A stretch of 64,000 nucleotides of DNA, from NCBI GenBank assembly GCA_017499595.2, contig CM039009.1, positions 2,108,001 through 2,172,000 of the forward strand, in the 5' to 3' direction. Every line of letters starts with the position of its first letter. Within the stretch, counting starts at the first letter, position 1. Both the position numbers and the translations under genes were made by a program. Below the pieces are notes generated by a model, which made no database searches, had not been told where the DNA came from, and saw only the letters and a program-made list of their open reading frames with translations. Below, piece after piece: positions 1,262-59,172 of the stretch. Source of the DNA: Psilocybe cubensis (lineage: Eukaryota).

Positions 1262-4200
1262 TCAGGTTGCCTTGTGCATCAAGGTTGCATTTCTGTCTTC
1301 GTACTCCTGGCAACTTCGGTAGAGATTCTCTGCATCCGCTTTCAATGCCGCTAATTTGACTATTTTTATAAAACATTAGTTGGTCAACGGCAAGACTGTA
1401 ATGTAATTGCTTGAAGCACAAACCTTGCTCAATAAGCTGCGGTTTAAGAACCTTGTTCGTTATCTCTCTTTGAATATCCTCAAATAACTCGGCAAGTGTC
1501 CAATAGCTCGACAGCTGCATGATATCTAGAACATGTTCAATCGGAAGACTTTCAACGTCTGGGTGGGTTCCCTTGTAGATGTAGTCTACTCATTATTAAT
1601 TAGACATAAATGTATCTAAATGGTGACTATAATTTAAAGACATACCTAGAACCGCACGAACACAGTCTGCGGAATAATCCGAAACGTCACACAGAATTGG
1701 TTCTTCAGAGGATGCAGCCTTAGCTTCCTTGAATCCTCCGCAGAAGCGATCGTTGAAGTATTCGCTGCAAACAGCCAAAAAGCTTCTGTGGCCTACTAAA
1801 CGTTCCGCGCTGGGATCACTAAGATCTCCAATGACGAATACGACATCAAACAGCTTGCTATCCTCTCTTAATTTTTGGAACCCCGCGCGAAGCAGTTCCA
1901 ACTTGGAGCTAGAGCTGGCGGGTGTCTGACTCGACGGATATTGTGGATGGAAAACATCCACCGCCCCTGCGGCGCGTAGCAGTTCTTCATACGGAAGGAG
2001 AAATCTACGAACATGCCGAATGTGAGCATCAATATCTTGCTTTTCAAATACCAGCTGCTCAGCGCAGTCCCATATCCATTCGTCTAAATCTTGGTCATTT
2101 ACATTGAGGAATATATGCTGGTGTTGGGTGTCAGGTGGGATGACAGATTGACCCGCTGTTATCACTTGTTCGTTGAGAAACCGGTATGACTCCTTCACAT
2201 CATGTATAACGATGCGGCGCTGTGAGGACGACAAGTTCTCCAAACGAGTTAGAAAATGAATGTGTGCTATCTGAGTTTATATATCAAGAGCATGTATATT
2301 TTCGTCAGCTATTCACCTTAGGTGTGAAAAGCCGGGACTTACAACTTCTGTGACGCTCGGTTGGCCCAGTTTGGGGTACGCCATAATAACTCTCTGGTGA
2401 GGTTGATTGGCAAAGCTTGCCCTTTGGCTCCACGCTACAGACTCGTACTCTTTTCTTACAAGATCAGATGGAGTTACAACTCGCCCCAGTGCGGTCACAT
2501 TTGACGGGAGATTCAAACCAGGGAGTCGGGTGTCCTCGTTAGGAAGCAGGCGACGAGCGGACATGTCTCTCGGAATAAACGCATATTCATCTAGATCATG
2601 CCAAAGATCTTCCCTGTTTGCTGGGACACGCATAGGCAGGATTTCTCCGTACGCTTCGAAAAGAATAGAAGCTCTGTTTGCTTTATCCTCCTCATCCTCT
2701 TCGCTCATAGCGTCGAGAACCTCTGCACATTCAAGAAAGCTTTCAAAGTTGAGGCTGCTCTCAGATTTAAGACCATATTTCTGCAGTGCCTGATCGAGTT
2801 GCTGAAATTCAGGGTGTATAAAACGATCTGAATGAAGACCAAATACCGCCTCAAACAGAGGTTCTCTGGCGTACAATACGTTTGAATCTCGAGTTATAGA
2901 GTTGCAGTTCGGAACTGGGATGACAGTGCTATAAGAAGGGACCAATCGAGGTAGCCATGTTTCCAGAAGTTGTCGGTAAGACTGCAGGTCCTGAGGTGAT
3001 AAAATATCAGGAAGGATTAACATCTCCCTGAGCTGGTCGTAGTCAATACGAGGGCCGTTCAAGAAACGAAGGGCGCCATATTCAGCCACATATACTCTCA
3101 TAAAAGGTCCTGCAATAGTCAAGGGAAGACCCTCTGGTAACATATAAACATCTGAAGCTGTGCACAGTTCCTCTGCTGATCCAGAACGGGCGCCAATCCA
3201 CAGCGGGAGTCTCTGCGCTACTGGTTGGAGCTCTGGAGGTAATTCATGGTCGATACTACGACGAACCCAGTTCGCAAAAGCGTCTTGCACGTCGGGAGGC
3301 ATATCTAATACGATCTCCGTTATGTTACTTTGTAAAGGTCCTGGAAGAGCCTTCAATACATTTTCGAGGTTGAACATCGGATAGCCGTCGTTGCGGAATA
3401 TGTCCATTAGAGAGGGGGGAATGCCATTATCTGATACTCGGACGATGTTTAAACCCAGGCGGGCAAGAAACATCCGTATGAGTTCGTACTGCTCGGTATT
3501 ACCATCCACCAGCAAAGTCGACACGTCTTTACAGCTCGATAAAGAAGCGAACCAATTATTGCGAACAAGTGGTACCAGAGGAAGGTTGGATATGTCATCT
3601 GTGACAAGACCGAGGTGGTTGTACTCGTCCCAAGTTTCCCAGAAGTCGCCGATCCAATCTGAGAGCTCTGGGGAAGCCTCGAAGGGAAATGATAGTGGCA
3701 AAGGGAATTTGGCCGAAATAAACATGCTGAGTGACTCAGTATTAAGAATAGCGACATTAACGTCAATCTTCAATAATACTTCTTTTAGCTTCCTTTTAAG
3801 TTGTGGATGAACAAAGTACTGTTGAGGGAAATTGTGGTGCGTGGATGGCGTTTTCGGCATCCATGCATAGAAATTGAACGAAGCATTACTGCGACTTTGT
3901 AGAGTGCCGAGGGTGCCGCTTTCAAGAGGAAGTATAGGAGCACCATGCATATTTGCCACTCCATCCATTTGGTCGCCAAGAAAATACGCAATGATTTCTT
4001 CAATATCTTGGAAACGGGAGAGACTGGGGGAGAGGATCCCAGAAGACGCGGCTCGTACGATTTCAGCTTTCACAAATTCCGGAGATACAACGGAAAGACT
4101 TGATTTCTTCATCAATTGAAATATACTTTTTGAAGGTTTTGCAACTGTAGCTGGGCGAAGTAAGGATAACAACCTCTCAACGCTGGCCGGTTCTTCCCCA

Positions 4201-7200
4201 GAAAGAACAGCTTCCTGAGGTGTAAGCCGTATTTCTGGATCATATGCGCTGCGTAACACTTGTCGATGAGACTCTTTAAGATGATTTGAGTAAAAGGAGT
4301 CGATAATTAATCGAGAATATGGGTCCTCCGTTTGATGACGAGGCAGTCCTGGCCACCAAGATTTATTGGTGTCGTGTGATAGAAGCAATTTTTGAAGTAA
4401 GCAGAGGTACAATGGTGGGATGACGTTAGAGAGAAGCCATGTGTTGAACTTATTCTCTAGTACATCAAGCCGTATGCTTCGCCTATCGGGGGATAATAGA
4501 AAAGAAGCCATTACATGCGCTGGGAGTGATGTTTGAAGACTTAGAGGTAGAGTCGAAAAAAACCTGTGAGGCTGTGGACTATGAGAAGTTGCGTTTCTTA
4601 AAACTGCAAGACCTGCCAAAGCAGGCAGTCTTGGTCTACTTGTAGATAAGATGGGTGTGAGGATATCATGGGGTATACTTGACTTTGCCACAGACGTCTT
4701 GACGGTTTGCCAAGTTGAAGTACTGCCCTCACTGTCAGTGATGTTAACTTGGGCGCAGGAGAATCCAGTATCCGGTTCAACTTCTTCCTCGCTACGATGG
4801 GCAGAAACAGACCATGACTCTTCTAAATCCCCCATAGCGTTGCGGTTGAGCTTGGTGATAGTATCAATTCCGGTAAAAAGTAAACACTCGCTTGCCGAGC
4901 AGCCATCAATTGCTGAGCGTCTAAAGTCTTGTAGGATGTGGTTGATATCCTCGGCTGTGTAAGTGCGTTGAGATATGGCCTTGGTTTCAATTCCTTTCAA
5001 GTGTCGACTATTACGAAGGGGAAGGATAAATATGGTCTACAATCTGAATTTAGAATGATTCCTCACTATTACATACGGAAAAGAGACATACCCCTTGGAA
5101 TGATCCTTCGTTCGCGATTCCGAAACCGAATAAACCATCCACGCAAGCAAGATGACTGGGATAATACCTGTGCTTACGGTCATCATGCTGAATAAAAAGT
5201 ACATAAAATGACCCTTACTCCCGAACACGCTTGAGAGGTAGCATTAATGATGCCTGATCACGGATAGGTAGGTGTTCTTTCGAAGGGTTCAAAAACAATA
5301 CACTCGAGTTTGATACAACGATGGCCATCTGAAATATTGTGAAATAGTATACAGGGATTACTGTAAAATACGTACCTCGGTGAAATGGAACATCGTAAGT
5401 GCCCCAAGTCCAAATTGACCTATTGTATCTCCCTTCCCTTCCTTGCCTCCGATCCCTGTTCGCCGGATACCAATAAAATCAGAATCTGTGAATACTGAGT
5501 TGTTATACACCACCAAAGTAGGTGAGGTACAAAACGGAATCATCGAATCTGAGAGTGCCCGGATGTTCTCATCTAGAATGGGGTGGTAATAATTGACAAG
5601 CAGTGAGAATTGAGTAGCACCAGCGTCAACTGCGTTTGCGAGGAATTCTGTGGCAAACTGTTTATCTTTATACTGCTCTAGATTGTTGCGCACAGTAGTG
5701 ACTAGATGTTGACCCATGTCGACGTATGAATCACTGAAGTCGACGTATTTCAAACCTAACCGATTCAATCCCAGTTTCCTCGCTAATGGCTCCTCCAAAA
5801 GTTCATGAGCAATGCGGTCATCACCAGAGGACACAAGATTGGCATGACTACCAATGTCATTGAAATAAAGTTCCTCAATCGGGAGTAACTGGCATGAAGC
5901 GTCAGGGACGAGGATTTGAGCACGCTCAGCGTCCGTGAAGTCAGATTTCAATGATCGTAGCATGTTAAGAGACATGCTGAGGTTATGCAAAGAGGGGGGC
6001 TCTTCTCGAAGGGCCTTTAGATTAGCGATAATGGCTTCGGTAGTGGGACTACGGGAAACCACATTTTAATTTAAATTTTTTGGAAGGTTTTAAAGGAACA
6101 TGTACCTTTCCTGGCAGCCCATCAGCTCCAAAAATTCTCGCATCTTTTTGTCCAGAGAAAGCACTTGATAGAAGCCCGATTCTGGAATGGAGACAACAAA
6201 TACGGCGTTTTGCGTTTCCACAAGATGACTATCAGTGGTTGGTACCCACTTTCGCCCGGAAGTTACCCTTTTCAACTCAGCAAAGTCTGTTGGGTTGCAG
6301 GAGCGAGTGCTGAGCTCTTTGACGATATCATGAACTTTCATAAAGTTGCCATCTTCCTCCGTTAGGACTCGTTCGAGCTGGTTGATTAGAACCTCTCTTG
6401 AAAGGGGGGCGTCCCATCCTAGAGCGTGAATCAACGACGATGGAATTTTGAACGAGTCCATGGTATCCAAAACTCGATCAAAGAGATTAGGATTGGTTAG
6501 ATTCCCATCCCTGCATTCTGCATAACCGCGCAATCCTTTATCGGTTGGTAGCCATTTTTGTTTGGGATTAAGTCGAAGTCCCGAGCAATCAAAGCGGGAG
6601 CTGATAATGAGATTCAGCAACGCCCTCGAGACTTCGATGGCACCTGGGGATAATGAACTAGAAATATGCTCGATACGTTCCTGTACTATTTCTGTGGTTA
6701 AGGCCGAGCGCAGCATGCGCAAATCTTGCAACAGACTGACGATCTTCTTCTCTGAGTCTGAGACCGCACGCGCTTGGAATGACGGACTGGATACGTAAAG
6801 CGCGTGTAATTTTGATTTCGGGTCCACCACATCGACGGCTTTCTGCTGCGAGCCGTCCATCACAGTGACAAACTTGATGTCGCGTAATGTTTGAAAAACT
6901 ATGGGGGGAACATGGTTACGATATCGATTGAGGTAGGACAAGGTGGCCACCTTCACATGGTCCGGCTGAGAAGTAAAGTGTTTGATCGTCAAAGAAAGGA
7001 CGTCAATAACTGACAATCGTTTCGACGTATCCGGCTCAAGATAGTCCAAAAGATTTGAAATACTTGTGTCAAGCTGAATAAATGCTACCCCTTCTACTAT
7101 TGGCAAGAAAGGCGGATTGTCGACTGCTCTCAAAGATACTTCATGTGGTATTTGATCCCAGGTAACAACAATACCTGCAGAGTTCAAAGGTGGGAAGGTG

Positions 7201-9860
7201 GCAATAGGAAAAATTGGCATGCCCTTCAATCGGCCAATGTGCTCCATAGTGAAAGGGCCATTTCGCATGACGCACCCTGCGGCATTCCCGACCACGTGCC
7301 TTAGAATGGTAGTGCACGTATCCGCGGAAAACGTAGGCCCACGAGCACCAGGGGATGGTTGAGGCAAGGATTCCAGAAGGGCATGAATGTCTGAGATTTT
7401 TCGAACCAGTTGATGAGATTCAATGATGTTCTGAGAAACGTGGCTAACGTCTGCGTCGAGGAAAGGTATGCCAACCAAAGATAGATGTCGAACTATTTTT
7501 GGATGTTCCCCAAGCGATTTGAATAAAGGCGTCATTACCTTCCGTAGGCCTTGTGTAGATGGCAAGAGGTAGAGATCGCGGACACTTTTCAACAGCTCTT
7601 CTTTCTGGTCGTAAGTGCTGGTCCAAAACCAAAACGCCGAAAGCCACTTGATAGCTCGAGGGTCGGTGCGGAGGAGGGATAAGTCTAGTCCAAGCTTGTT
7701 CGGGTAGATCGAGAGATATTCAACGATGCGGGGTATAGAAAGTGTTTCAACATTGAGATGCATCGGTCCCAAAGTTCGGAGACTCTCCGCTGCTTTCACA
7801 GGAAGGAAATGCAAAGGAATAGCCTCATCATCACATGCCCCGAAGACATTGTACTCGACTTCACTTAACATAGTGTAAGACCTTATTCCAGGGATGCCCT
7901 TAGCAGATAGGGACACTGTACGATCATCGACGACGGGGATGATGGGCAGACCAATAAGGTTTTGCACATTCCCACTGGAAAGTAGATATTCGATAACTAT
8001 TTTCTTGTCACCTTTTGAAGCAATCCGTATTGTATCTCTCTCCTATTTTGACAAAATTTGATAAAAAAAAATCGGACATTTAATATAAACAACTCACGAG
8101 TAGTGATTTGTGGGCTTCCTCAGGGGATAAGAACCTGAACCCGCCCGAGCTCTTAATCAAGCCATGAATATATCGAGGCGGGCAGGTAAATTGTAGCCCC
8201 ATAGCGGTGAGGGCATCCAGCAATGCTAGTGGTGTTTTTGGTTCCGCGGATATAACAACATCGAGTGTTTTGTACTCGATGCTCAACGAAGGTGATTGGC
8301 TGTGCTGATATAGTGGCCAGGCATGCGAAAGGGAAGAGGTTATTGCAGCGAAGACGCGCTGAGGCATCAAATTCCAGTAGACACCCTCGCCACTGGTAGG
8401 AGATCCCTGAGGGGGTGGCCAAGTATCAAAGACCTTTGGAACGTTGTCCTTTTCAATAAGAATTTCGATTAGTATCTTCCATGCCTGTGGGATATAATGG
8501 TCGAACAACAAGCGATTCCACAAGATGGTGAGACTTTGACAAGTTAGATTAACACAACGTGTTAGAGAAAGGTGCTTACTGCCGATCACTTCCATGTACG
8601 ATACCTGCTGTCTGTGGGTTGACAAGGTGCTGTCGCGATTCCTCGATAGCAAACAATCCATGAATATGCACGGGGAACCCTGTGGATATCGGTAAAGGCA
8701 GATGCATGAAAAGCTGACCCGATGTCCCCGTGCTGGACTTCGCATCCAAAGGGAATGCAATGCCAATGTTTGGCGTTAGCTTGTTGTTTCTTAGGATCTC
8801 AGTGGCATCTCCTGGAAAGGTCTGTGAAAGGAGCTTGATGGCTTCATCCTTTGAGAACGAGCATTGGAGAATGCGCCATTGTTCGGTTTTGACCAAAGGG
8901 TCCGAGTCACGTTTAATCGTAGTCGTAAAAAGATATGTTTCCCATTCCAACCCATGATTGACGTGTGACGCTGACACCGAGAGGGTTGCTAAACGTTTGT
9001 GCATCCCTGTCTCTTCAACTTGATGGAATTTTACCGAACGTAAGTGCCGGAGGAAAAGAAGGGATATTGCGAGCTCTCTGTCGATATACTTGGAAAAAAT
9101 TTCTGAAGCAAGCTCTTCGGGCTGCACAACTTTCGAACTGATTTTGCTGGGTTCAGTCCTCAGCGGGCAACGAATGACAGTCCCCTTGAAGTCTCTACGC
9201 CCCTCGTGTATAAAGAAGAGGAAGGGCGCCAATTGATCCGGATAATGTGTAATCATGGACGAAAGATTTTCTTTAAATCCTGGCGACCCAGTAAACGTCG
9301 ATAAAGGGTCAAACATTGCTATGTAATTTCCGGAGATGATTTGAGGACAGTCCGTAATCTATACACAAAGTTCAGAACGTTGATACGCTGATAAAGGTAT
9401 CAGGCATACATTGAACAGGGATCGGAATCCGACACCAAATTTGCCAATTTTACTGGGGTTGCATGTTTGTTAAGCGGAATGGCCCAGAAGTGAACAATGA
9501 CTAAAACGCACGATATATCATCTACTTTAGATGATTCATGGGCATACTGCAAAGCATGCCAGTCGCTATCGTTGAACTCGGCATCGTTGTACGCTAACAG
9601 CGCTGGTCCCTGGGTTGATGCCAGTCCTGGGTGAAACAACGATTTTGTTGGATGTTGTCGGTGGTCGAGAACGAAAACCTTCAGGTAGATGAAGGAGTTG
9701 GCATGTCACGGAGCTAACGGGTACGCACCTGTTCCGACGCCCCTGCATCCTCTGAGTTCTGCTTTATCTCTGAAATCTGGCCTAGAGAGTATGGATATCG
9801 CTGAATTATACCCCGTATGACGCTAACAGGCGTCGCTGTTTGCCCAAACCCTTGGCTCAT
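1262..9860 (-). CDS. Large sacsin-like protein with two Hsp90/GHKL-like sacsin repeat modules and a C-terminal BTB/POZ domain
   Basis: ATG 9860: MSQGFGQTATPVSVIRGIIQRYPY...EIKQNSEDAGA, then YNDAEFNDSDW, GKFGVGFRS, GTVIRCPLR, LPLPISTGFPVHIHGLF. Second module: MGQHLVTTVRNNLEQY...EFLANAVDAGA...YNNSVFTDSDF...IGQFGLG. C-terminus FDVVFV...GHRSFLAVCSEYF...FCGGFKEA...VLDYIY is BTB-like. The ORF-track blocks join in frame through short GT-AG introns; stop TGA at 1262-1264. Confidence 0.85.
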
Positions 9861-12573: not shown

Positions 12574-12692
12574 GGTGAGATGGCCGAGCGGTCTAAGGCG
12601 CCAGACTAAGGTACGATCAGGACATTTGATGTCCTCGCAGTTTCTGCGTAATCTGGTCTTTCGGGGCGTGGGTTCGAATCCCACTCTCATCA
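12574..12692 (+). tRNA. tRNA-Leu(AAG) with a 39-nt intron (12612-12650)
   Basis: Acceptor stem GGTGAGA/TCTCATC, A-box TGGCCGAGCGG, anticodon stem CCAGA/TCTGG with CT-AAG-G, long variable arm, T-arm GTGGG-TTCGAAT-CCCAC, T5 Pol III terminator at 12697-12701. Confidence 0.93.
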
Positions 12693-13169: not shown

Positions 13170-13291
13170 TGATGAGAGTGGGATTCGAACCCACGCCCCG
13201 AAAGACCAGATTACGCAGAAGCTGCGAGGACATCAAATGTCCTGGTCGTTATACCTTAGTCTGGCGCCTTAGACCGCTCGGCCATCTCACC
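13170..13291 (-). tRNA. tRNA-Leu(AAG) with a 42-nt intron; inverted second copy
   Basis: Reverse complement is identical to the 12574 copy in the mature tRNA; differences are only in the intron. T5 terminator reads as AAAAA at 13161-13165 on the + strand. Confidence 0.93.
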
Positions 13292-23982: not shown

Positions 23983-26900
23983 CTAGTGAGCTTCACCTAT
24001 CATCATGTCATCATCTTGTCCTGGCAGTAATTTCTCTGGAAATACGATGTTGGCCGAAAGCTCCTCTTCACTGCATTCATATCGAATAACGTGTAGATAT
24101 TCCCTCAATTGGCCAATTTCTGGTCGGGCAGCTGGTTCCTTTGTCCAACATGAGAGAATGAGATTCCACAATTCGTCTGATAGAAGGGCTTCCGGTGGTC
24201 TCGCAGGTGTTCTACCTTTCATCACCTCCATGAGGACCTGCACGTCGAGTAGAATGTTCTCATACGGGATCCTTCCAGTTATTGTCTACCGCATAAATAT
24301 CAAATCTGGCATTGCTTGTCAGCCATTATGTGCGCAAGGACGCACCTGAAGCATGACGCCGCCGAGCGAATATATATCGCAATACTTGGTGACATCCGGG
24401 ACAGCAAGGCCAAAGTGCAACAGCTCGGGCGCTGCCCATCTCGGAGACCCGCCAACGGTAGAACTGATGAACGAGTTGTGTCGCACTTCGGCCATAGCGT
24501 TCGACAGGCCAAAGTCACTTAAATGTGCCCTGTCTTCGTCCATCAGTATGTTCCCCTGCGGGCATGATGCCAATGGATGGCGCTTAGAGTTGTGCGGTAA
24601 GAATACGTTGGAAAATGATTCGACCTACGGTTGTTAAATCGCCATGAATGACGGACTGCGAATGCACTTGACGTCTTTGGTCAATCAAGATGTTGTTATC
24701 TGAACTTTGAAAGCCAATTCCTTACAATAGGCTAGGCCCTCTATGACATCTGCCAACTTGAGAATTGTGAATGTCGGTAAGCAAGTAATCGAAAAAAGGC
24801 AGATTGTACGCACAATTTGCAACCGTTTTCGCAAGGTCAGCTCAAGAACCTTTTTGTTGAGATATTGGCTCAGGTTTCCATGTTCCATCCACGGGCAGAC
24901 CATCGCTAGGTAGGGTCCAAAGCCGGTGGTAGTCCCCAGCAATGGAACTACGTTAGGATGTCGCAACAAGGCCCATAGCCGGATCTCTCTTCTCAATCTC
25001 TAAAGCAGTTGATCGAATTGATTACCATTAAATTTTGTGATTAGCTCCCAATAGGAAAGGACAATAGTACCTTGTCTATCTTCCATTGATTCGAAGCAGT
25101 GTATGTATGAGACCGAATTACTTTGATTGCAACCTATCATAACCATCAGGGGAACCTTGTTCTCTGTATATAGAAAATATTCGAACCTTGATGCTCCTCC
25201 CTTTTCTCGTTAGCTTGCCTATATATACATCTGCGTAGCCGCCCCCATTCGACGGATATTCACTGTCTCGCTTTACGAGCCCCGTCAGATCCTCCGTTTT
25301 TGCATTAAAGAAAGTATTTGAGAAAGAAGTTTGTGCAGGGCCCGGCATTCGCGAGCGATGGATATGCTCAGGTACGGCCCATTTCGTTTCTACTCCAGTG
25401 GTTGCGCTGGTAGTCCATGTCGCTACGTTGTCCTCTTTCTCTGAGATATGATATACAGCAGCGCTGGTTTCGACGGGGGGCATTTGAGAATTTTGCAATA
25501 CGTCCGAAAGACCATGTAATGAGAGTCCAGTATTTTGATCAAGACTGAATTCAAGCTCTTCTGGGTCTACAGTTTTTAGCATCATCTGATTTTTGGGCCG
25601 CGGCGCAAAAAGTTTAGATTTAAGCACCGCTAAAGCGTCTAAAAATCGCTGCCCATTCTATAGCATAAAAACAAATTTGACGCCGTTCAAATGCTTGCAC
25701 ATATAGTCATAAAATGAAAGGCGCACCAGAGCAAGATTATGACGTTGTTGCTGGTTCATAGTAGTGTAATACTGGCGATGCCCTGGAATTTCTTCAAGGA
25801 CAAGCTTTGCTGCTTGGGCATACCGTACGAATGCGGATTCCAAGTCGCCGTTTGACGCGCTTTCCTCTGCATCTGCTTCCAATTGTCGTACAATTCCTAG
25901 ATAGCGCTTTAAGGACATGTTATGATCCCATTCGGAATCAGAAACCCTCTTTAAGAGGCTTTCCAACGACGATGGTTCGTTGTATGTCGCATTGGAATTA
26001 TAAGCGGGCATTCGTAATTCATATTGTTGTCCCAAGGCATCCTGGGAGGTGACAGTAGGAGTACGAGGTATCATCTCGGTGGTCATGTCTGAAGGAACAC
26101 GACGGCTACGGTTGCCGCCTCAAACATGGTCTAACTTTCTTGCAGATCGTCGAATCTGAGTCCGTTTTTGTTAATCGGGGTCCCTTCCTCGTGGCATAAC
26201 TCTCCGTTACCTTTGTGACACCTTTTATAGCTTTACAATCTCCGACACTGTACATGTTCTGCCGACCGCCGAGGCTATGAACAATCTAGTGCCATTACCG
26301 AAGTGTTACTGGCTGCTGGCACATGAGCCTGAGCAAAATTGAAGTTGAAGTTAGAGTACCAGAATTATTCTATCAGTTTAATATGTAGAGCTAAGTTTGT
26401 ATTATATGCATTATGGGAGGTCAGAGTAGACGATTCAAACGCAGAGGTGATTCTCCTCATCAGAAGCGTGGGAAGACGCAGAATCGCCTCTTGCTGACTC
26501 GCCTCTGAATCGTTGAAGCGGCTCCGGACGCGCTTCAACGATTCTGCATCTATGAATACAATAAATTACAATTTCCAATTAAAAGAAGCCACTGGGCTGT
26601 TAGTACGGCTGTGTTTTGCCATATTGGATAACGAGTCTGCTTTTCAGTTGCAGAGGTTACAAGTGAATTGACAAATTAGTAGTCCTGGCTCATGCTGCTA
26701 AGGCGTAATCGACACTCACTTCCGTTTGTTAAGACTCAAAATTAAATATTCCGTGTACGAGTCGAAGGTTTCCTCTTTTTCATCGTTCAACAACATGTCA
26801 AGGTTTCAATGTTTTTATTCGTTTTTTTTCGTTGCCTCAGCGGTTCGAACCTGACAATAGAAATGGAAACAAACCCCCAAGTTTATCAGAACACGAGGCA

Positions 26901-27749
26901 GAAACAAGCAAAAACTTAAATTGAAGGGTGATCGGGTTTCCATGTTGCTTGTATCCTATGTCCAATTTCTGAGTCACATTCACACTTTCTGGTAAAGCAC
27001 CGTTTTATAATGTGAAAAATGACATTTCTCATAGTCCAATTTATGAGCAATATATAATACAACCTAATTAACCTACTCGTAAGCTGTGTAGAATAAGGGC
27101 CAAATTTTACAGCATAGGAATACGCTGGAAGACAGCGTTGTACACCACCGACTTAAACAAACACACAAAATGCTCCATCTAAACGGGGACATGGTGGCAT
27201 GCCTGTCTCAAGGTTGGAGGGTATATGTAGCCGACGGCAAGGGGGGTGTAATACATGGTGACTTGAGGGTGTTGTACAGCATGATAAGAAATTGTACTCA
27301 CCTGCTTTGGCCTGTATGTCAACCTGTTAGTGAACGAGGAGGTGGTGTGAGGGCATTTCGGAGAAGGGCCTCCAGCCGCTCACAGAGTGGTTGAAACTCC
27401 GACTCCCCCCGAGCCGGCCAACCACAGTCACACACTAGAGGGCCTGAACAGCAGTTCTACCTGACGTGACAAACAGGAAAGTAACGCAGTGCCAGGACCC
27501 CCACCCACCGCTTCTTGATAGCGGAACAGTTGCCTTATGTAGACCATGTTTGAGGCGGCAACCGTAGACGGCGGTCGATTGGAATTCTGTAATTTCCACG
27601 AAAGAGTGATATGGTATACCTGACATTGAAGGTTGCAATTTAGGATATAACCTTGGCGGGTCCGGCATCTCTGGTGCGTGCAGTTCCAGTGTTGACGTGC
27701 TAGGGTACGTGCGTAGCACATTTGACGAGTGTGATCCTTGTCGTAGCAT
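23983..27749 (-). CDS. TKL-like protein kinase with an N-terminal USP8-dimerisation (MIT-like, AMSH/Doa4-type) domain; intron 1 carries a transposon
   Basis: Kinase motifs GGGYADVY, VAIK, REIRLW, HPNV, IHGDLTTGNIL, DFGLS, PRWAAPE, DIYSLG, CW...RP. N-terminal LKRYL...GDLESAFVRYAQAAKLVLEEIPGHRQY...HNLAL|NGQ. Exon 27749-27620 (130 nt) splices in frame to the acceptor at 26089 (G|AC ATG). An alternative start at ATG 26086 is possible. Confidence 0.82.
26107..26133 (+). repeat. Left terminal inverted repeat TACGGTTGCCGCCTCAAACATGGTCTA
   Basis: Exact reverse complement of 27540-27566. Confidence 0.95.
26430..26544. repeat. Cluster of nested inverted repeats inside the transposon
   Basis: Perfect 14-bp stem GAATCGTTGAAGCG (26507-26520) / CGCTTCAACGATTC (26531-26544); also GCAGAGGTGATTCT / AGAATCGCCTCTTGC and ACGATTCA / TGAATCGT. 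Confidence 0.8.
27540..27566 (-). repeat. Right terminal inverted repeat
   Basis: TAGACCATGTTTGAGGCGGCAACCGTA, followed by GACGGC. Confidence 0.95.
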
Positions 27750-28387
27750 AGGTGCTCAAAACATTGAGGAGAATAGCAATTGGTGATGATGGTGAAGCAA
27801 AAGATGCGCAGTACAGGATGTTCATTTAATCGACAGCACACATCCTGTTGTGGCCTGTGCCTTGTCCCGTTGGCGCCGGTATCTATCGTTTACACGTCAA
27901 GTTTGAGACTCAGAGTCTGCCAGGCAGTACCAGCTCTGCCGACGGCGCGGCAGTTGCAATTGTCGTGTCGGACACGCAGCTCAGATCGACACAAACTGTT
28001 CCGTGGCATTACGCAAAGTTGAATTCAATCAACGCTGGACAGAATCCTGATCTATAGTATAATCCAAAGGGCGTAACTGTACGCAACGCTAGGTATTTTT
28101 CCACAACATAAAGTACGAACAGTAAAATGTTCAACAAAAAAAGGAAATGAGCCAAAAAAGAGCGGGTATATATACTAGAGAAAAGAGCATCAAAATGAGG
28201 GAAATTACGTGGTGGCCCACTTGGGGAGAAAACGCGTCGAACGTTGGCGGAGTGTGATTTTCATGCAATCGTCAAAAATGTCAAGAAAAAGAGAAAGCCC
28301 CAATGGCGAATGAGGTGCGACAAGAGAGGATATAAGCTGAACGAGAGTTGCGACAGAGATGCGCGCTTCAAGTCAGTTATATCGCGT

Positions 28388-29915
28388 TCATCGTCTGTTG
28401 GTGCCGCTGCGGCCGTATCCAACTTGGAGGTTCTCCAACTCAGCCTCGAGTTGCTTGATAGCGCTGTGCGCCATCTCGAGATCCTTGTTCAAGCGATCAC
28501 GCTCGGCAATCAACTGTAAAAAGATAATAGTCAATACTCAAATAAAAAAGCAGCTTCATAACGTCGACGTACATGCTGCTCCCATTGCCTGAATCTCGCT
28601 TCCTCAGCCTTGACCTGTTCGGTGAACTTCTTCCTCAGCTGTTCTTCCTCCTCCTTGAACTTGGGGTTGTCAGGCTTCCTGATCTTGGCCTCTCCGAATT
28701 TGCGAGTCTCCATCTGTGCCTGCCTGTAGTTCTCGTAGTGGAGCTCTTCCGACGTTGAAATCAAATCCAACATGTGTGTTCGGATGAGGAGGGAGCGCAA
28801 TTTCTTGAAGTCGCAGTGGTCCTCATTCTCAACTAAATTTTGGGTATGGTATTAGACTAAAGATATCTGAATTAGCGAAGGAATCAACACAAACCTTCGG
28901 CAACACCCCAAATATATTCACGACCCTTGACGACACGGCCATCAGGAGTCCTGACGTCTTCAGTCGAACCAATGATGGAGAAAGGAATGGCATCAATCAA
29001 GACACGGGCGTGGTCTGCGTTCTCGTCGTCGGATTCGATAGGTGGCGTGTAAATGCGGATGCCTTGCGCAGAAATCACTTCGCGAACCTAAACGTACAAG
29101 ATAGGCGGAAGGGCGGGGACAGAAAAAATGGTAAATGAAACTATAGCAAAAATGATCAGTGATGTTGCCACGTACCCGTTGCTTGAAGGTATGGAGGTCG
29201 TTTTGGGTGAGGGTGTCGGCTTTGGCGATGACTGGAATCAAATTGACGCGGGTTCCAAGGCGCTTCATGATTTCGATATCCAGAGGCTTCAAGCTGTAAC
29301 CATTTCAGTAACTACGGACAATGTTGGAAATAAAGTGCACATACGTGTGGCCGGTGGGGCGAATGAAGTAGAGGCAAGCGTGCACACGAAGGTCAGTCTT
29401 CTCGTGTCTCTGCGGCTGCTGCTCCTGACGCATGTACGCTTCATGTTGGTCGTCAATGAATTCGACAATAGGGAGCCAGGAGTCACGGTTGTTAACATAG
29501 TCTCCGAATCCAGGGGTATCGATGACGGTTAGCTTGACTTTGAACTGACGCTCCTCAAGCTCAGCCTTGATGATTTCAACTTCGGTCAGTTTGTCGAGCT
29601 GCTTGAAGTGACGTTTGCTGTAGTTTTTAGGGGGTGACAGCTCAGTCGAGAAGAGGGTGTTGATCAACGTGGTCTTTCCCAAACCAGACTCGCCTATTGA
29701 CACTCATTAGACAGTCGAATCTAAAGCTGTGGGCATGGTCAACTCACCGACAACCATAATGGTGAAGTGGGCACCACGTTTTGCGACAATCTTATGCCTC
29801 TGTCACAGTTCCGACGCGTCAGTCGCTGTGCGTCTGTGTACCAAAACTTTACAAGTACCTGGTTGGGCAGGTTGGCAATGCCAATACCGTCAAAAGAGGG
29901 TGTAGGGAGGGCCAT
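28388..29915 (-). CDS. CDC12: Septin, Cdc12/AspC/Spn4 group
   Basis: [71 protein letters not shown]-terminal coiled coil [23 protein letters not shown]...LNKDLE. Confidence 0.9.
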
Positions 29916-38246: not shown

Positions 38247-40194
38247 ATGAGCTTTTTTGGGTTTGATTACTTAAACTTTTCTCCGAAGAGGTCGTCCACT
38301 TCAAAAAGCCATGATACCTCTTCCAGCAGTTGTAAGTTCAAATGCTGATACATTGCCACTCAGTAGATCTTACAACATATAGCATCTAGCTCCAACAGGC
38401 GAGCTCTCGATTAATTGTCACATTCCATCAGTCAGTTAACAATGAGTTCCTTCTTTAAAGTTCTGCAGAGTCAGACTTGTTACGCCAGAACGAGGAGCTG
38501 AAGACAATGCTGGCTGAGTTAGCGGCGGAGAATGCTCGATTGAAGCTGCAGACCACAAAGTTATTAGATGAGACCACCGAACCCGTTCAAACTACTATCG
38601 TGACGCCCGCACAAGCTGCCAGCCCGTCATTCACCACCCTCAACCGACAAGCTCCCATCATGCCCAAAAAAGATGTCTTTAGATGGGCGAAGCTTTCAGA
38701 TCTGGGAGCTCTGCAGGAAGAAGATTCCACAGACGACCTGGTTTCTGGCGATGCAAGCGACTCCGACGACAGCATTGCCGATGCACTTGAAGCGATGAAC
38801 AAACTATTAGTGCTGGATGGACAGGATTCGCCAATTGAGGAAAATGGGAATGGTTTATCTTTCCCAGACTCAGCAGAATCCTCATTTTCAGCTTCGTTAC
38901 TGAGCGGCGTAACAACGGAGGACCTTACTGGCTTTGTCGTCAAGGATAGTGAATATCCCGCGCACGGTGGAGGATATGCCGATGTATATACTGGCACTCT
39001 GTCAAAAGAAGGAAAGAAAACCAAGGTGAGAATCAATTACTTATGACGTGCAGGCCACCACGCACAACTTTTTAACTGCTTTTGAGGTGGCTATAAAAGT
39101 GATCCGGGCACATACGTATACGCCGAGCAATCAATGGAAGATAGAAAAGGTTCTCTTTCCCCCGTCATCATTTTCGTCCTTCCCAGCTCATACTTATCTC
39201 ATTTGATAACAGAGGCTGCGACGCGAAATACGTCTGTGGTCGTGCTTGCATCATCCAAACGTTGTACCGCTGCTGGGAACTACTATGAGTTTCGGCTCTC
39301 ATACTTCTATGGTCTGCCCCTGGATGAACGAAGGAAGCTTGCACCATTATCTTACTGACAGGAAATCCGAGTTAAACCTTAGGAGGCGTTTGCAAATTGT
39401 AAGTATTCAAAAGATTACATCGTTCAAACTATTTAAAAATAACGTAACGCGAAGCTGTCAGACGTTGTAGAAGGCTTATCATATTGTGTGGATCATTTCT
39501 TGATGAATTTCCTGTTGCTCGAGTTAATGAATCACTTGTACAGTGCATTCACAGCCAGTCATTCACGGCGATCTCACAACGGTTCGTACCCTTTTCTCAA
39601 CGTTTTAAGCATTCTCTGATTACAGGTTTGAGTAGGGTAACATACTGATGGACGGCGGGAAGGCACATCTAAGCGACTTCGGCCTATCAAATGTCATGGC
39701 AGAAGCCCGAATCAATTCGTTCTTAAGCTCCACAGTTGGAGGGGCCCCGAGGTGGACAGCACCTGAACTCCTTCACGTAGGTACGGACCCTATTGCCCCT
39801 GCAGATATGACCAAAAAATGCGATATATATTCGTTTGGGAGTGTTGCGCTGCAAGTCAGTCCTTCAAATTTTTATTCTGAGAACGACTTGCAGAACTTTT
39901 TTGCAGGTTATATCCGGAAGGATACCCTACGAGGATATCGTTTCTGAGGTCCAGGTCATCATGCAGCTTATAAAAGGTATCAATCCTCCAAGGCCTGCTG
40001 AGCCACTTCTTTCAGACGCATTCTGGGAGTTTATTGTTCTATGCTGGAGTCGAGACCCGTTTAAACGACCTGAAATCGACCAAGTCAGAGAGAAGCTCCA
40101 ACTATTACGCTACAGCTGCACCGAGGAGACATTGGCTTCCAATATTGTCGATTGTGATAAACAGCCAGAACAGGAAACCAATGACAATGAATAA
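38247..40194 (+). CDS. TKL-like protein kinase, paralog of the 23983-27749 kinase, with a coiled-coil/acidic N-terminus
   Basis: TEDLTGFVVKDSEYPAHGGGYADVY, VAIK, LRREIRLW, IHGDLTTGNIL, DFGLS, PRWTAPE, DIYSFG. Start inferred at ATG 38247 via a 16-nt exon (38383-38398) and a GC-AG intron (38399-38460) that keep the frame. Confidence 0.85.
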
Positions 40195-54828: not shown

Positions 54829-55246
54829 GATTATGGATGATTGATCGAAGTAATTGTTAACTTGAAAGATCGCAAAATCTTATCGACTTGACTCGACACG
54901 GATACTTCCGTTAAAGCCATAATCCTTTGAAATAAATAACTGCATCGTATGCTTAGGGGTTACAGTTCAAAAAGGGAAGTCAACTCTATATTTGGAAGTT
55001 GAATTGGAAGGCTGTTTTTTAAGCTTGTTCAGAAAACGCCGGGACTCGTCCCAGGTCCTAGACAAATTTCTATGGCGTTCAGTCTAAGACTTGGGATAGA
55101 ATGCTGAAATTGAGCTCGATTAAAGACCGGTTTCAAGCATCTATATATTGGCTGTCTATGTTTTCTTTTGACATTCAAGTTTTGGTTTAGAAATTATCGA
55201 CTCTGATCGACTACTATCGTTACATAGTCTCCACACGTTGATGTGT

Positions 55247-56483
55247 CTAGTGAGAGGTACCAGACTCTATATCAATAGTCGGCGTGCGCTCTAAAGTGTC
55301 AGTTTGTTTGCTTTCACCGATACTCTGAGTGAAGCGAATGGAGGATATGGCCCCGATTTGGCCAAGATCATTGGAAGCTTTTTTTTCTTCCACTCGACGC
55401 TGGGCCACGCGGATTAAAATCAAGTTGAAGGCGATCCCCGTAACACCGAGGTTCTACAGGCGGAATGAGGCGAATGTTTGTTAGTGTGGTCCACATCAAG
55501 AAGAAATACGGCGACAACAGTACCATATCTGATATAATGGCAATGGCAAAAGCATTCGGGGTCCACCATACAACAAAATGCGCGATAGCTGTGGCGAGGT
55601 ATATGACGCCTGATTCTATCAACACACGCATTGCGAAGCTAAGTGCGCTGTCGGACGTGCTGGTGGCATCGGTCCGTTTGGAAACAGATGAAATTTTTCG
55701 CACAATCATAACTAGCTCATAGGATCAGTAAGAGAAATATCACGGACAGACGCTCCTATACTTACATGTTGCGTAACTGTTCAAAATAATTGTTGACGCC
55801 CAAAATGGGGTCAAGATTGTACCAGGTCCAACCTGCATATTTACCGGCTGCCATGCGCCAGATATGGAGGCACTTTGAACTATCTGCCAATATGCTTGTA
55901 GTACGGTAAGCATTAGGCCTCCAAGCCAAAAGAATACTGGGAACACAATGACACGCTTGGAATTATTGTAAATAATCCAACAACGGTATATCTGATATGG
56001 GTAAAGTGAAGTTATAAGCTATTTCTTATGCCTAGAACATTCCCTTTGAATGATACACGACTTACTAAGACAGAGTCTGCTAGGAGGGTAGTCATATTTG
56101 AATTTGTACACTGTTGATTTCATCCTTGTTAACACGTCAAGTCAAAAAAAAATAAAAATAAAAATAAAACTCACAATAACCACTGACATCCACAGAAGTT
56201 TTGTGGAACCTGTATACTCTTGTGAGGTGGAAGCAGAAGTTTTATTTGCGTCGTCGACCACTTTCACTGCACTAATGAGCTGAAGCACCTTTGAGATAGT
56301 CGAGAATGTGCATATTGCAATGGTAATAGTGACCAGGGTCCAACTGATTCGTGACCGAACCCTCCAACCTTCGTCCGTGAAGATGAGCCATCGCAGGCAA
56401 TGGAAAAGAGTCGACAGATATAAACCGTAAACGAGGGCAATGACAAACATGACTTGGACATCTTGACCTGGTAGAAGGGACAT
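55247..56483 (-). CDS. Seven-TM membrane protein of an Agaricomycete-expanded GPCR-like family, copy A (C-terminus 9 codons shorter than copy B)
   Basis: Seven hydrophobic segments; LADSVL|IYRCWIIY, LNSYAT, RVLIESGVIY, GIAFNLILIRV; TAG at 55247-55249. Confidence 0.8.
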
Positions 56484-57916
56484 TGTGAGTAAATTCGAAG
56501 TATGCAAGCTTCTCTGACTAAAATCAATGCATTATATACCAGTTGCCTCTAGTCTTCATCATTGGGATCAGTGAGCAGAATATCCACTTGATCACAAAAA
56601 TGTCAAAGCGGGGATCAGGAACTTGGGATATCTCTTCTGCACAGTTTGGTTGGTGGAAATGCAGATATATCCCCAATAACCATCTACGGCAATCCTTTCT
56701 TTGAGTTGGTAAATAAAAATATAACTTCTGTATAAGTACATGAGTTCTGGGACAAAAACAATCTTGCTGTGTCAATGATAATATAGCTCCAAAAATACCT
56801 CTGCCTATAGAAGAGGCCTGATTATTGAATGACATCCTTTTAGGTCAGTTTTGTCCCGTAAAGATCAAGTCAAATCATTCTTTATCAGATAGTTAGGTAT
56901 TATTCTGAAATCCCGTACATTAAAGATCATGAAGAATGGCATAATGTCCTAGTTGACCAATTTTGTTTCATTTACTCAAGGATAACTGATTTCGCTATTA
57001 ATATCCAGCTCCACATTTCCCAACGCAGTCGATATTTAACAACAAAAACGTATTAGCTCAATGTACCGTATAAAGTCAATGGAAACTAGGAAAGTAATAC
57101 ACAGATCCAACAATTATATAGAAATGAAACTAGAACCGTACGAGCCACATAGAAACCTTCTGTTAAGCGCCCATCGGTGAAATCCTCTATCCAGACTTCC
57201 ACATGAGCTTGGAGTAACTTACCCACGCAATTAATATCCACCATTACGATATTCAATGGAGGAAAATGTTTTTATATGAACCAGTGATCGCGCGTTCTAT
57301 TTCTACTGGCCATGAACACTGGCGTACCGTGACCTCAGTTAAGTGCATCAACTGTTAGACGGGCAGGCAACACTAAAGTATGAGGATTCAATCCTTGCGA
57401 AAATATGATTAACTTCCAAGTCGTTATATTCCTTTATTTAAACGGTTCAAAGACACCCCACAGTTCATGAACATTGATGGAACGCACGACGGCGCTTTAA
57501 ATACCTTCATATAACTTTCAAAAGACAGCTAGAATCACTAACAAATTAAGGAAAACAATCCAAACAGGGAAATGCATTAAAATTTGGAAGTTGCCAGTGG
57601 ATAGAAGCTGATCTTGGCTCTTCTCGGCTGAAAAAGGATAAAATCTTTCCTAAAGATGTGCTGTGCACTGTAATTTAAATCGTTCACTGTTAGTCGATTT
57701 CGACCTTGAACGTATGATTGATTACCAAACAATAATCTAGTGATAGTGTCTGTTTTCGTTTGACACTACTAAACTTATCAGTCTTCTATTATACACAGTC
57801 TAATTAATGTCGTTATACTGTTTCCACACGTTAATGTGTTTCAATCGTAGTATTCTATGCAAATCCAATACCTAATTTCCTCTTCTTTGAGTTAGTAGAC
57901 AATTATGATAATATTG

Positions 57917-59172
57917 TTACACAGTCTCCACGCATTGATTTATTTCGTGAGAGGTACCAGCCTCTATATCAATGGTTGGCGTGCGTTCTACGGTGTCAAT
58001 TTCTTTACTTTCACCGATACTCTGATTGAAGCGGATGGAAGATATGGCCCCAATACGGCCATGAAAATCGGATGATTTTTCTTCGTCGACTCGCCGCTGG
58101 GCCACGCGGATTAAAATCAAGTTGAAAGCAATTCCGGTAACACCCAGGTTCTATCAGATGGAGACAAGAAGGTTAGTACATCCAATATGCCAGGAAGGTT
58201 GGACCATGGTTACCATATCTGATATGATGGAAATGGCAAACGCGTTCGGAGTCCACCATACAACAAAGTGCGCGATGGCTGTAGTGAGGTATAAGGCACC
58301 TGATTCGACCAGTACGCGCATGGTGAATCTTAGGGCGCTAACCGATGTGCCACCAGCTTCAGATTTTTTGGAGACCGATGAAATCTTACGCACAATCATA
58401 ACTAGCGGTTGTGATTAGCAGGCAAAGTAGAGCAGATTTGTGACCCTAAACTCACTTGTTGCATAACTATTTAACAGAATCGTTGACGCCCAAAATGGAG
58501 TCAAGATAGTACCAGGTCCAACTTGCATGTTCACCGGCTGCCAAGTGCCAGCTATCGAGGCACTTTGTACTATCTGCCAATACGCTTGTAGTCCAGTGAG
58601 CATCAACCCACCAACCCACAAGAATACTGGAAATGTGATGACCCGCTTGGAATTGTTGTAAACAATCCAGCAGCGATATATCTAAGGTGGGTAAAAGAAG
58701 TCATTAATTATACGCCTAACTCCGAGGATCGTTCACTCTGGAGGATACAAAACTTACGAGAACAGAGTCTGCTAGGAGGGTAGTCAAATTTGAATCGGTA
58801 CACTGTTGATTTCAATTTTTATAGCTCTTCGAATCACCAAAAGGCAGTCGAAATAGAGCTTACAATAGCCACCGACATCCATGGAAGTGCTGTCGATCCT
58901 GTATACTCCTGTGAGGTAGTCGTGGAAGGTTTACTTGCGTGGTCGGCTACATGGACCGCACCAATGAGCTGGAGCACTTTAGAGATCGTTGAGAGCACCC
59001 ATATCGCTATTGTAATGGTGACCAGGGTCCAGCTAATGCGTGATCGGGCCTTCCAACCTTCGTCCGTGAAGATGAGCCATCGCAGGCAGTGGAAGAGAGT
59101 CGACAGATATAGGCCATAAATCAGAGCCACAACAAACATGGCCTGAACATCTTGGCCTGGTGGAAGGGCCAT
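57917..59172 (-). CDS. Seven-TM membrane protein, tandem paralog copy B
   Basis: Same exon structure and motifs as copy A (LADSVL|IYRCWIVY, RVLVESGALY, GIAFNLILIRV); TAA at 57917. Confidence 0.82.

Follow-up and report, generated by a model that had tools for sequence, protein, structure and literature searches.

A probable IS3EU-type non-autonomous DNA transposon segregating upstream of a kinase gene in Psilocybe cubensis

IS3EU is among the least studied superfamilies of eukaryotic DNA transposons and has been described as poorly characterised and published in Repbase only (PMC8232023). In every complete IS3EU family the termini are TA..TA, and the target site duplications (TSDs) usually measure 6 bp; IS3EU groups with GingerRoot in a single lineage at a bootstrap support of 99% (Kojima and Bao, 2023, PMC10045372). 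Here we analysed 64,000 nucleotides of Psilocybe cubensis contig CM039009.1 (positions 2,108,001 to 2,172,000 of the forward strand, hereafter the window), in which the 1460 bp at 26107-27566 are, judging from the sequence, probably a copy of a low-copy, non-autonomous class II DNA transposon bounded by terminal inverted repeats (TIRs) and belonging to the IS3EU/GingerRoot superfamily.

In fungi, the IS3EU elements of seven Pucciniales species show 6-bp TSDs, TIRs longer than 30 bp and ends of the form TAYGG..CCRTA (Kojima, 2025, PMC12730594). The Pucciniales and Tuber families IS3EU-2_PGr, IS3EU-5_PGr, IS3EU-2_PTrit, IS3EU-1_MMed and IS3EU-1_TuIn resemble the present element in their 6-bp TSD and in the TAYGG..CCRTA ends; however, they are autonomous and large, carry genes for transposase, alpha-kinase and TET/JBP, and have TIRs of more than 30 bp (PMC12730594), whereas the present element is 1.46 kb long, non-coding, has a 27-bp TIR and is similar to them only at the tip. 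The IS3EU-related REP9/Styx of Zymoseptoria likewise has TIRs and 6-bp TSDs, was recently active and differs in its insertions among isolates, but it is a four-gene autonomous element (PMC8232023, PMC10853768), whereas the element described here would be a small, non-coding derivative of a longer partner. An earlier annotation of this locus, made from the sequence alone (the original prediction), had called IS3EU a rarely reported eukaryotic group, which does not hold for fungi given its description in rusts, Tuber and Zymoseptoria.

TA..TA termini, a 6-bp TSD and the lack of a strict target are also shared with the IS3EU families of Repbase and with GingerRoot of Selaginella (PMC10045372; Cerbin et al., 2019, PMC6839031). 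GingerRoot occurs in plants and animals, and its TSDs are GC-rich (PMC6839031); those seen here read GACGGC, TGCTTC and AGCGT(G/C). Membership of IS3EU/GingerRoot is set by the DDD/E transposase; the present element carries none and is placed by its ends and TSD. The transposase presumed for it is of the same DDE/integrase kind as that of the bacterial IS3 family, but IS3 and IS481 end in TG..CA, unlike the TA..TA of the present element (PMC10045372).

Ends, target site duplication and empty site

The left TIR (26107-26133, plus strand; TACGGTTGCCGCCTCAAACATGGTCTA) is 27 bp long and begins with TACGG, and the right TIR (27540-27566, minus strand) is the exact reverse complement of TACGGTTGCCGCCTCAAACATGGTCTA and ends with CCGTA. 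The two arms, identified by an inverted-repeat match, are complementary at 27 of 27 positions and are separated by 1406 bp. They are bordered by exact copies of GACGGC on the left (26101-26106) and on the right (27567-27572) of the element. The perfect 27-bp TIRs and the exact GACGGC on each flank named in the original prediction are thus confirmed with unchanged coordinates, and the single GACGGC of the empty allele (see below) shows that the duplication is a biological one. No inverted repeat continues beyond the 27 bp, the next 50 positions showing scattered identities at most. The 27-mer occurs at just two sites in the window, also when up to three mismatches are allowed, and gave no match across 100 dinucleotide-preserving shuffles of the window.

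Four of 13 listed public sequencing runs were aligned to positions 24607-29066 at a likeness of at least 90%. Runs X12 and X13 consist of raw reads and X6 of contigs, all three carrying one species label, and X7 consists of contigs under a different species label. In X12, X13 and X6 a joint from 26100 to 27567 was observed, in which 1466 bases (the 1460 bp of the element plus one GACGGC) are skipped and six letters fit either side. This joint was found in 18 reads with 17 start places in X12, in 15 reads with 11 start places in X13, and in one contig of X6, whose depth of 34.4 equals that of the adjoining right-flank contig. At the uninterrupted site the flanks meet in a single GACGGC, with no TA between them. 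The filled right junction was found in X7, in a 151-nt piece covering 27558-27708 with one difference. At four private sites, 7-19% of the reads have the window-type letter, consistent with a single window-like copy at this or another position. Since filled and empty alleles were both found, both states occur in nature and the insertion segregates among natural samples.

The empty allele, having one GACGGC and no footprint, is most simply read as ancestral, and because other isolates retain the intact site, this copy was inserted recently enough to segregate still. The original prediction had taken the identical ends and duplications as a sign of recent insertion and had advised looking for the empty site in other strains; its presence in three runs of the same species label supports that view, being the reverse of the shared insertion in relatives that the prediction had named as contrary evidence. 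The empty allele also bears on another reading of the ends, in which a Tc1/mariner/pogo element with a TA duplication (TA + CGGTTGCC...GGCAACCG + TA) landed by chance between two GACGGC words. A TA is indeed present at both edges of the element, but a TA-duplicating insertion would leave GACGGC-TA-GACGGC at the empty site, whereas the observed empty allele lacks exactly 1466 bases and has one GACGGC and no TA. This reading is therefore refuted, and we give it next to no probability.

Other copies of the element

Counting reads at least 90% alike, the mean depth in X12 was 104.7 over ten element bins and 29.5 over twenty flank bins, and in X13 it was 114.6 over the element and 32.5 over the flanks. 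In both runs the depth over the element is thus about 3.5 times that over its flanks, indicating a small multi-copy family, and hundreds of reads pass from both element ends into unlike flanking sequence. Further copies had been anticipated by the original prediction, and both observations agree with this. Assuming two haplotypes, and counting only copies that are at least 90% alike, we estimate that each haploid genome has about 3-4 of them. At flank positions 24706, 24733, 24806 and 27599, about half of the X12 and X13 reads differ from the window, which suggests a heterozygous diploid or dikaryotic organism with two haplotypes. From the letters read and the flank depth, the genome would measure roughly 53-55 Mb.

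These reads also speak to the possibility that the locus is not mobile and reflects an inverted repeat arisen by chance, an artefact of assembly or a deletion in the other isolates. The window itself holds one copy, and the empty form could formally be explained as a deletion between the two GACGGC words. However, neither the 3.5-fold depth, nor the hundreds of reads that leave both ends for unlike sequence, nor breakpoints falling exactly at the TIR edges, nor the lack of TIR matches in shuffled sequence would be expected in that case, and an immobile locus is accordingly extremely improbable.

The loose ends of reads from other copies place the boundaries of the element. Among those listed, every right-hand loose end comes directly after 27566 (X12, 81 reads; X13, 76 reads), and the left-hand ones lie before 26106 (55 in X12 and 45 in X13) or before 26107 (39 in X12). 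The left-hand pattern leaves some room for a 28-bp TIR (CTACGG...CCGTAG) with a 4-bp duplication of ACGG, as C 26106 and G 27567 are complementary in this copy and the 55 X12 and 45 X13 reads just mentioned break at 26106 and not at 26107. In contrast, the listed right breakpoints are at 27566 and not at 27567, 39 X12 reads do break at 26107, and an apparent second copy has C to the left and T to the right of the element. The outer bases hence change with the target, which favours the 6-bp duplication and makes the 28-bp parse very unlikely.

The apparent second copy was read from flank consensi. The left-flank consensus of X12 ends in TGCTT followed by a matched C, and the right-flank consensus of X13 opens with TGCTTC, so that this copy is apparently flanked by a 6-bp duplication of TGCTTC. 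In a further pair of flanks the left ends in AGCGTG and the right opens with AGCGTC, with five of six letters in agreement. The consensi were drawn from mixtures of reads, with an agreement of 0.54-0.85 overall and of 0.54-0.62 for the latter pair, and they provide good though not conclusive evidence for a second duplication.

The copies are not all alike. Reads at least 99%, 95-99% and 90-95% like the window numbered 731, 722 and 465 of 1918 in X12, and 737, 860 and 489 of 2086 in X13, and the majority of the reads that stem from other copies fall below 99% likeness to this one. At seven of the 12 listed variant positions within the element (26333, 26408, 26438, 26606, 26711, 27078 and 27244), 71-93% of the reads in both X12 and X13 differ from the window letter, and all seven changes are transitions. 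Indels and variant breakpoints are concentrated at 26457-26523, 26816-26842 and 27389-27391. The family itself is thus not uniformly young, unlike this insertion. Within the element, a repeat search and read breakpoints delimit a palindromic, GAATCG-rich stretch at 26474-26551 with 19-nt arms (26507-26525 and 26526-26544), and the reads show that this region differs in structure among copies, some breaking off at 26457 and 26490 and others having small joints within 26490-26523. The GC content of the element is 44.9%, similar to that of the window, and a signature of repeat-induced point mutation is not evident in it (TpA/ApT 0.96; (CpA+TpG)/(ApC+GpT) 1.09).

Probable assignment to IS3EU

The longest stop-to-stop frame lying fully within the element comprises 100 aa (27092-27394, plus strand), in line with the absence of a transposase-sized open reading frame in the original prediction. 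A Pfam search of the 12 longest frames of the element (54-100 aa; about 25 frames reach at least 40 aa) gave nothing better than E=0.05, Rfam gave no match over 25500-28200, and the 100-aa frame had no homologue among 5.8 billion predicted proteins. The body of the element, 26107-27566, is thus without recognisable coding capacity or RNA family. When 23 nt of the TIR were searched for as an exact string in the JGI metagenome collection, there was likewise no match. Dada-type targeting of small RNA genes was rejected, since the target has no RNA family in Rfam.

The superfamily label is drawn from the ends and the length of the duplication. The TSD is 6 bp long, GACGGC being present once in the empty allele and TGCTTC apparently flanking the second copy, and the termini are of the TA..TA and TAYGG..CCRTA type, with TACGG from 26107 and CCGTA up to 27566, where the reads break. 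The element starts with TACGGTTGCC, and its other end is the complement. For comparison, Table S1 of PMC12730594 gives the start TACGGAAGCC for IS3EU-2_PGr and IS3EU-5_PGr, TACGGTGGACC for IS3EU-2_PTrit, TACGGTGTACG for IS3EU-1_MMed, TACGGCAAGG for IS3EU-1_TuIn and TATGGAGG for IS3EU-1_PGra. The first ten bases of IS3EU-2_PGr and IS3EU-5_PGr resemble those of the present element (TACGG-WW-GCC; PMC12730594). The hallmarks named in the original prediction, TAY..RTA ends and 6-bp TSDs, are thus found in print, the ends in the more precise form TAYGG..CCRTA (PMC12730594, PMC10045372), and the misfit to the rules for Tc1/mariner, hAT and CACTA that it had noted is upheld by the TSD length, the termini and the empty allele.

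Several observations weigh against the assignment. The TIR is 27 bp long and does not extend further, compared with more than 30 bp in the published rust families, although that figure describes one set of families and not the whole IS3EU superfamily. Neither a transposase nor an autonomous partner was seen in the scanned frames of the element or the window; for the window, this covers 85 of the 109 listed frames of at least 100 aa, the frames left out mostly overlapping scanned ones, and none of the 85 had a transposase domain. A 13-mer and an 8-mer of the element tip had no match in Table S1, and any resemblance of the ends to the IS3EU families there is confined to the first 5-10 bases, a comparison that covered the first 400 letters of each of the TET-carrying families (PMC12730594). 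In addition, the TGCTTC duplication was pieced together from the consensi of two runs and not from one assembled copy, and a 6-bp TSD is also found in hAT6, Ginger2/TDD and Polinton. Since the tip 13-mer and 8-mer are absent from Table S1, the element is not one of the TET-carrying families listed in it. In terms of the known IS3EU type it would be a new member, small, low-copy and non-autonomous, with its novelty gauged against those TET-carrying families.

The described alternatives were compared by their termini and duplications. The TSD of hAT elements is 8 bp, with 7 bp in hAT7 and 5 and 6 bp in hAT5 and hAT6, respectively, the latter two belonging to an animal lineage (PMC12730594). The 6 bp found here fail the 8-bp rule, and hAT was rejected, its 6-bp variant hAT6 being alike in TSD length but different in its animal lineage (PMC12730594). 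EnSpm has a 3-bp TSD and CAC..GTG ends, Plavaka has a 2-3 bp TSD, and the CMCT lineages, which include EnSpm/CACTA and Plavaka, have CA(C)..(G)TG termini and 2-5 bp TSDs (PMC12730594); all of these were rejected on the TACGG..CCGTA termini and the 6-bp TSD. Kyakuja has a 7-bp TSD and CA..TG ends without a TIR, and Zisupton an 8-bp TSD (PMC12730594), and both (KDZ) were rejected because the present element has a 6-bp TSD, a TIR and TA..TA ends. PHISTA elements have a TA TSD (PMC12730594, PMC6839031), which does not fit either. The other integrase-type elements with a 6-bp TSD, Ginger2/TDD and Polinton/Maverick, were rejected on the TA..TA ends, as Ginger termini are TG..CA and those of Polinton AG..TC (PMC6839031).

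A broader alternative is that the element is a non-autonomous TIR transposon of another or undescribed superfamily, such as a hAT6-like hAT or an atypical Mutator-like element (MULE), with TA ends that are coincidental. No transposase was seen that would place it elsewhere or in IS3EU, and its TIR is shorter than those of the rust families. The termini of hAT6 are not known to be of the TA..TA type, and the usual termini of hAT and MULE elements differ from TACGG...CCGTA, which counts against such an origin. Families of hAT with 5-, 6- and 7-bp TSDs do exist, but hAT5 and hAT6 belong to the animal hAT lineage, and the variant found in fungi is hAT7, with a 7-bp TSD (PMC12730594). Furthermore, TACGG...CCGTA is exactly the published terminus of fungal IS3EU (PMC12730594). 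An origin in another superfamily is hence unlikely, and IS3EU/GingerRoot remains the probable assignment.

Genomic setting, proposed mechanism and significance

The window is gene-dense, with genes for proteasome, FtsJ, septin, DEAH helicase, sugar transporter, WD40, DnaJ, tRNA synthetase and UCH proteins. The element sits in an intergenic region, with the 3' end of the septin gene (about 28531-29703, minus strand) on one side and the 5' end of a kinase gene, also on the minus strand, on the other. The model of this intron-bearing kinase gene (23983-26086) predicts a USP8_dimer-like N-terminus (Pfam USP8_dimer, E=8e-9) and a Tyr/Ser-Thr-type kinase domain (PK_Tyr_Ser-Thr and Pkinase matches on three exon frames). 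In the reconstructed empty allele, the kinase frame has an upstream stop and no ATG before 26086. The insertion would thus lie upstream of the kinase gene's likely start codon (ATG 26086), at a distance of 15-20 nt and within the 5' leader or core promoter. A homologue search with the kinase N-terminus returned no matches.

The kinase gene has an inverted paralogue at a distance of 13 kb (38459-40194, plus strand, against 23983-25657, minus strand), with nucleotide arms 72-75% alike; the kinase exon frames match and the N-terminal parts differ. In one X6 contig (depth 22.2), the 451 bases at 25406-25856, in the region of the kinase N-terminal exon, are replaced by five letters, while a second X6 contig (depth 27.1) is identical to the window there. 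The change looks like a frame-breaking deletion allele, which would suggest that this kinase paralogue is dispensable.

Three further features of the window were recorded. Two near-identical tRNA genes of about 120 nt face each other (12574-12692, plus strand; 13170-13291, minus strand; Rfam 48.7 and 48.4 bits), forming an inverted repeat whose arms measure 40 nt (100% identical) and 91 nt (98%); ARAGORN at default settings found no tRNA in the window against the two of Rfam, probably because of an intron or else a long variable arm. Two tandem copies of about 1.25 kb (55212-56461 and 57909-59150, spacing 2.69 kb) are 76-84% identical in five collinear blocks, and their frames have no Pfam match. 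Finally, a long multi-exon gene at 1596-9705 (minus strand) has Sacsin-domain and BTB matches, and the 26 database proteins matched by its 907-aa exon reach no more than 44% identity.

The 6-bp stagger and the TA ends are shown at this locus, and a mechanism can be proposed around them. A transposase encoded by a longer partner elsewhere in the genome would recognise the 27-bp inverted ends and mobilise the element in trans. This enzyme would be of the DDD/E, retroviral-integrase-like kind, related to bacterial IS3 transposases, and would link the TA...TA termini to target DNA cleaved with a stagger of 6 bases, with repair of the gaps yielding the GACGGC duplication. Bacterial IS3 elements make shorter duplications and move by a copy-out/paste-in circle. 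Among the joints listed here, no end-to-end circle joint was present, and none was expected at 30-fold depth. No transposition mechanism for IS3EU was found in the parts of the literature examined. It is possible, though we put it forward only tentatively, that the family is still transposing in natural populations and that the insertion may also alter expression of the kinase gene in carriers.

Fungal IS3EU with 6-bp TSDs and recent activity has already been described (PMC12730594, PMC8232023, PMC10853768), and knowledge of transposons is in this respect unchanged. For annotation, the element marks a presence/absence variant that lies immediately upstream of the kinase gene's likely start codon. 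For the superfamily, this copy confirms the 6-bp stagger and the TA ends with population data and provides a handle toward an active partner. Should the family still be transposing, the element would be a tractable natural substrate for the question of cut-and-paste versus IS3-like copy-out/paste-in transposition in eukaryotic IS3EU, since its ends are exactly defined, filled and empty alleles both exist, and there are only a handful of copies per genome.

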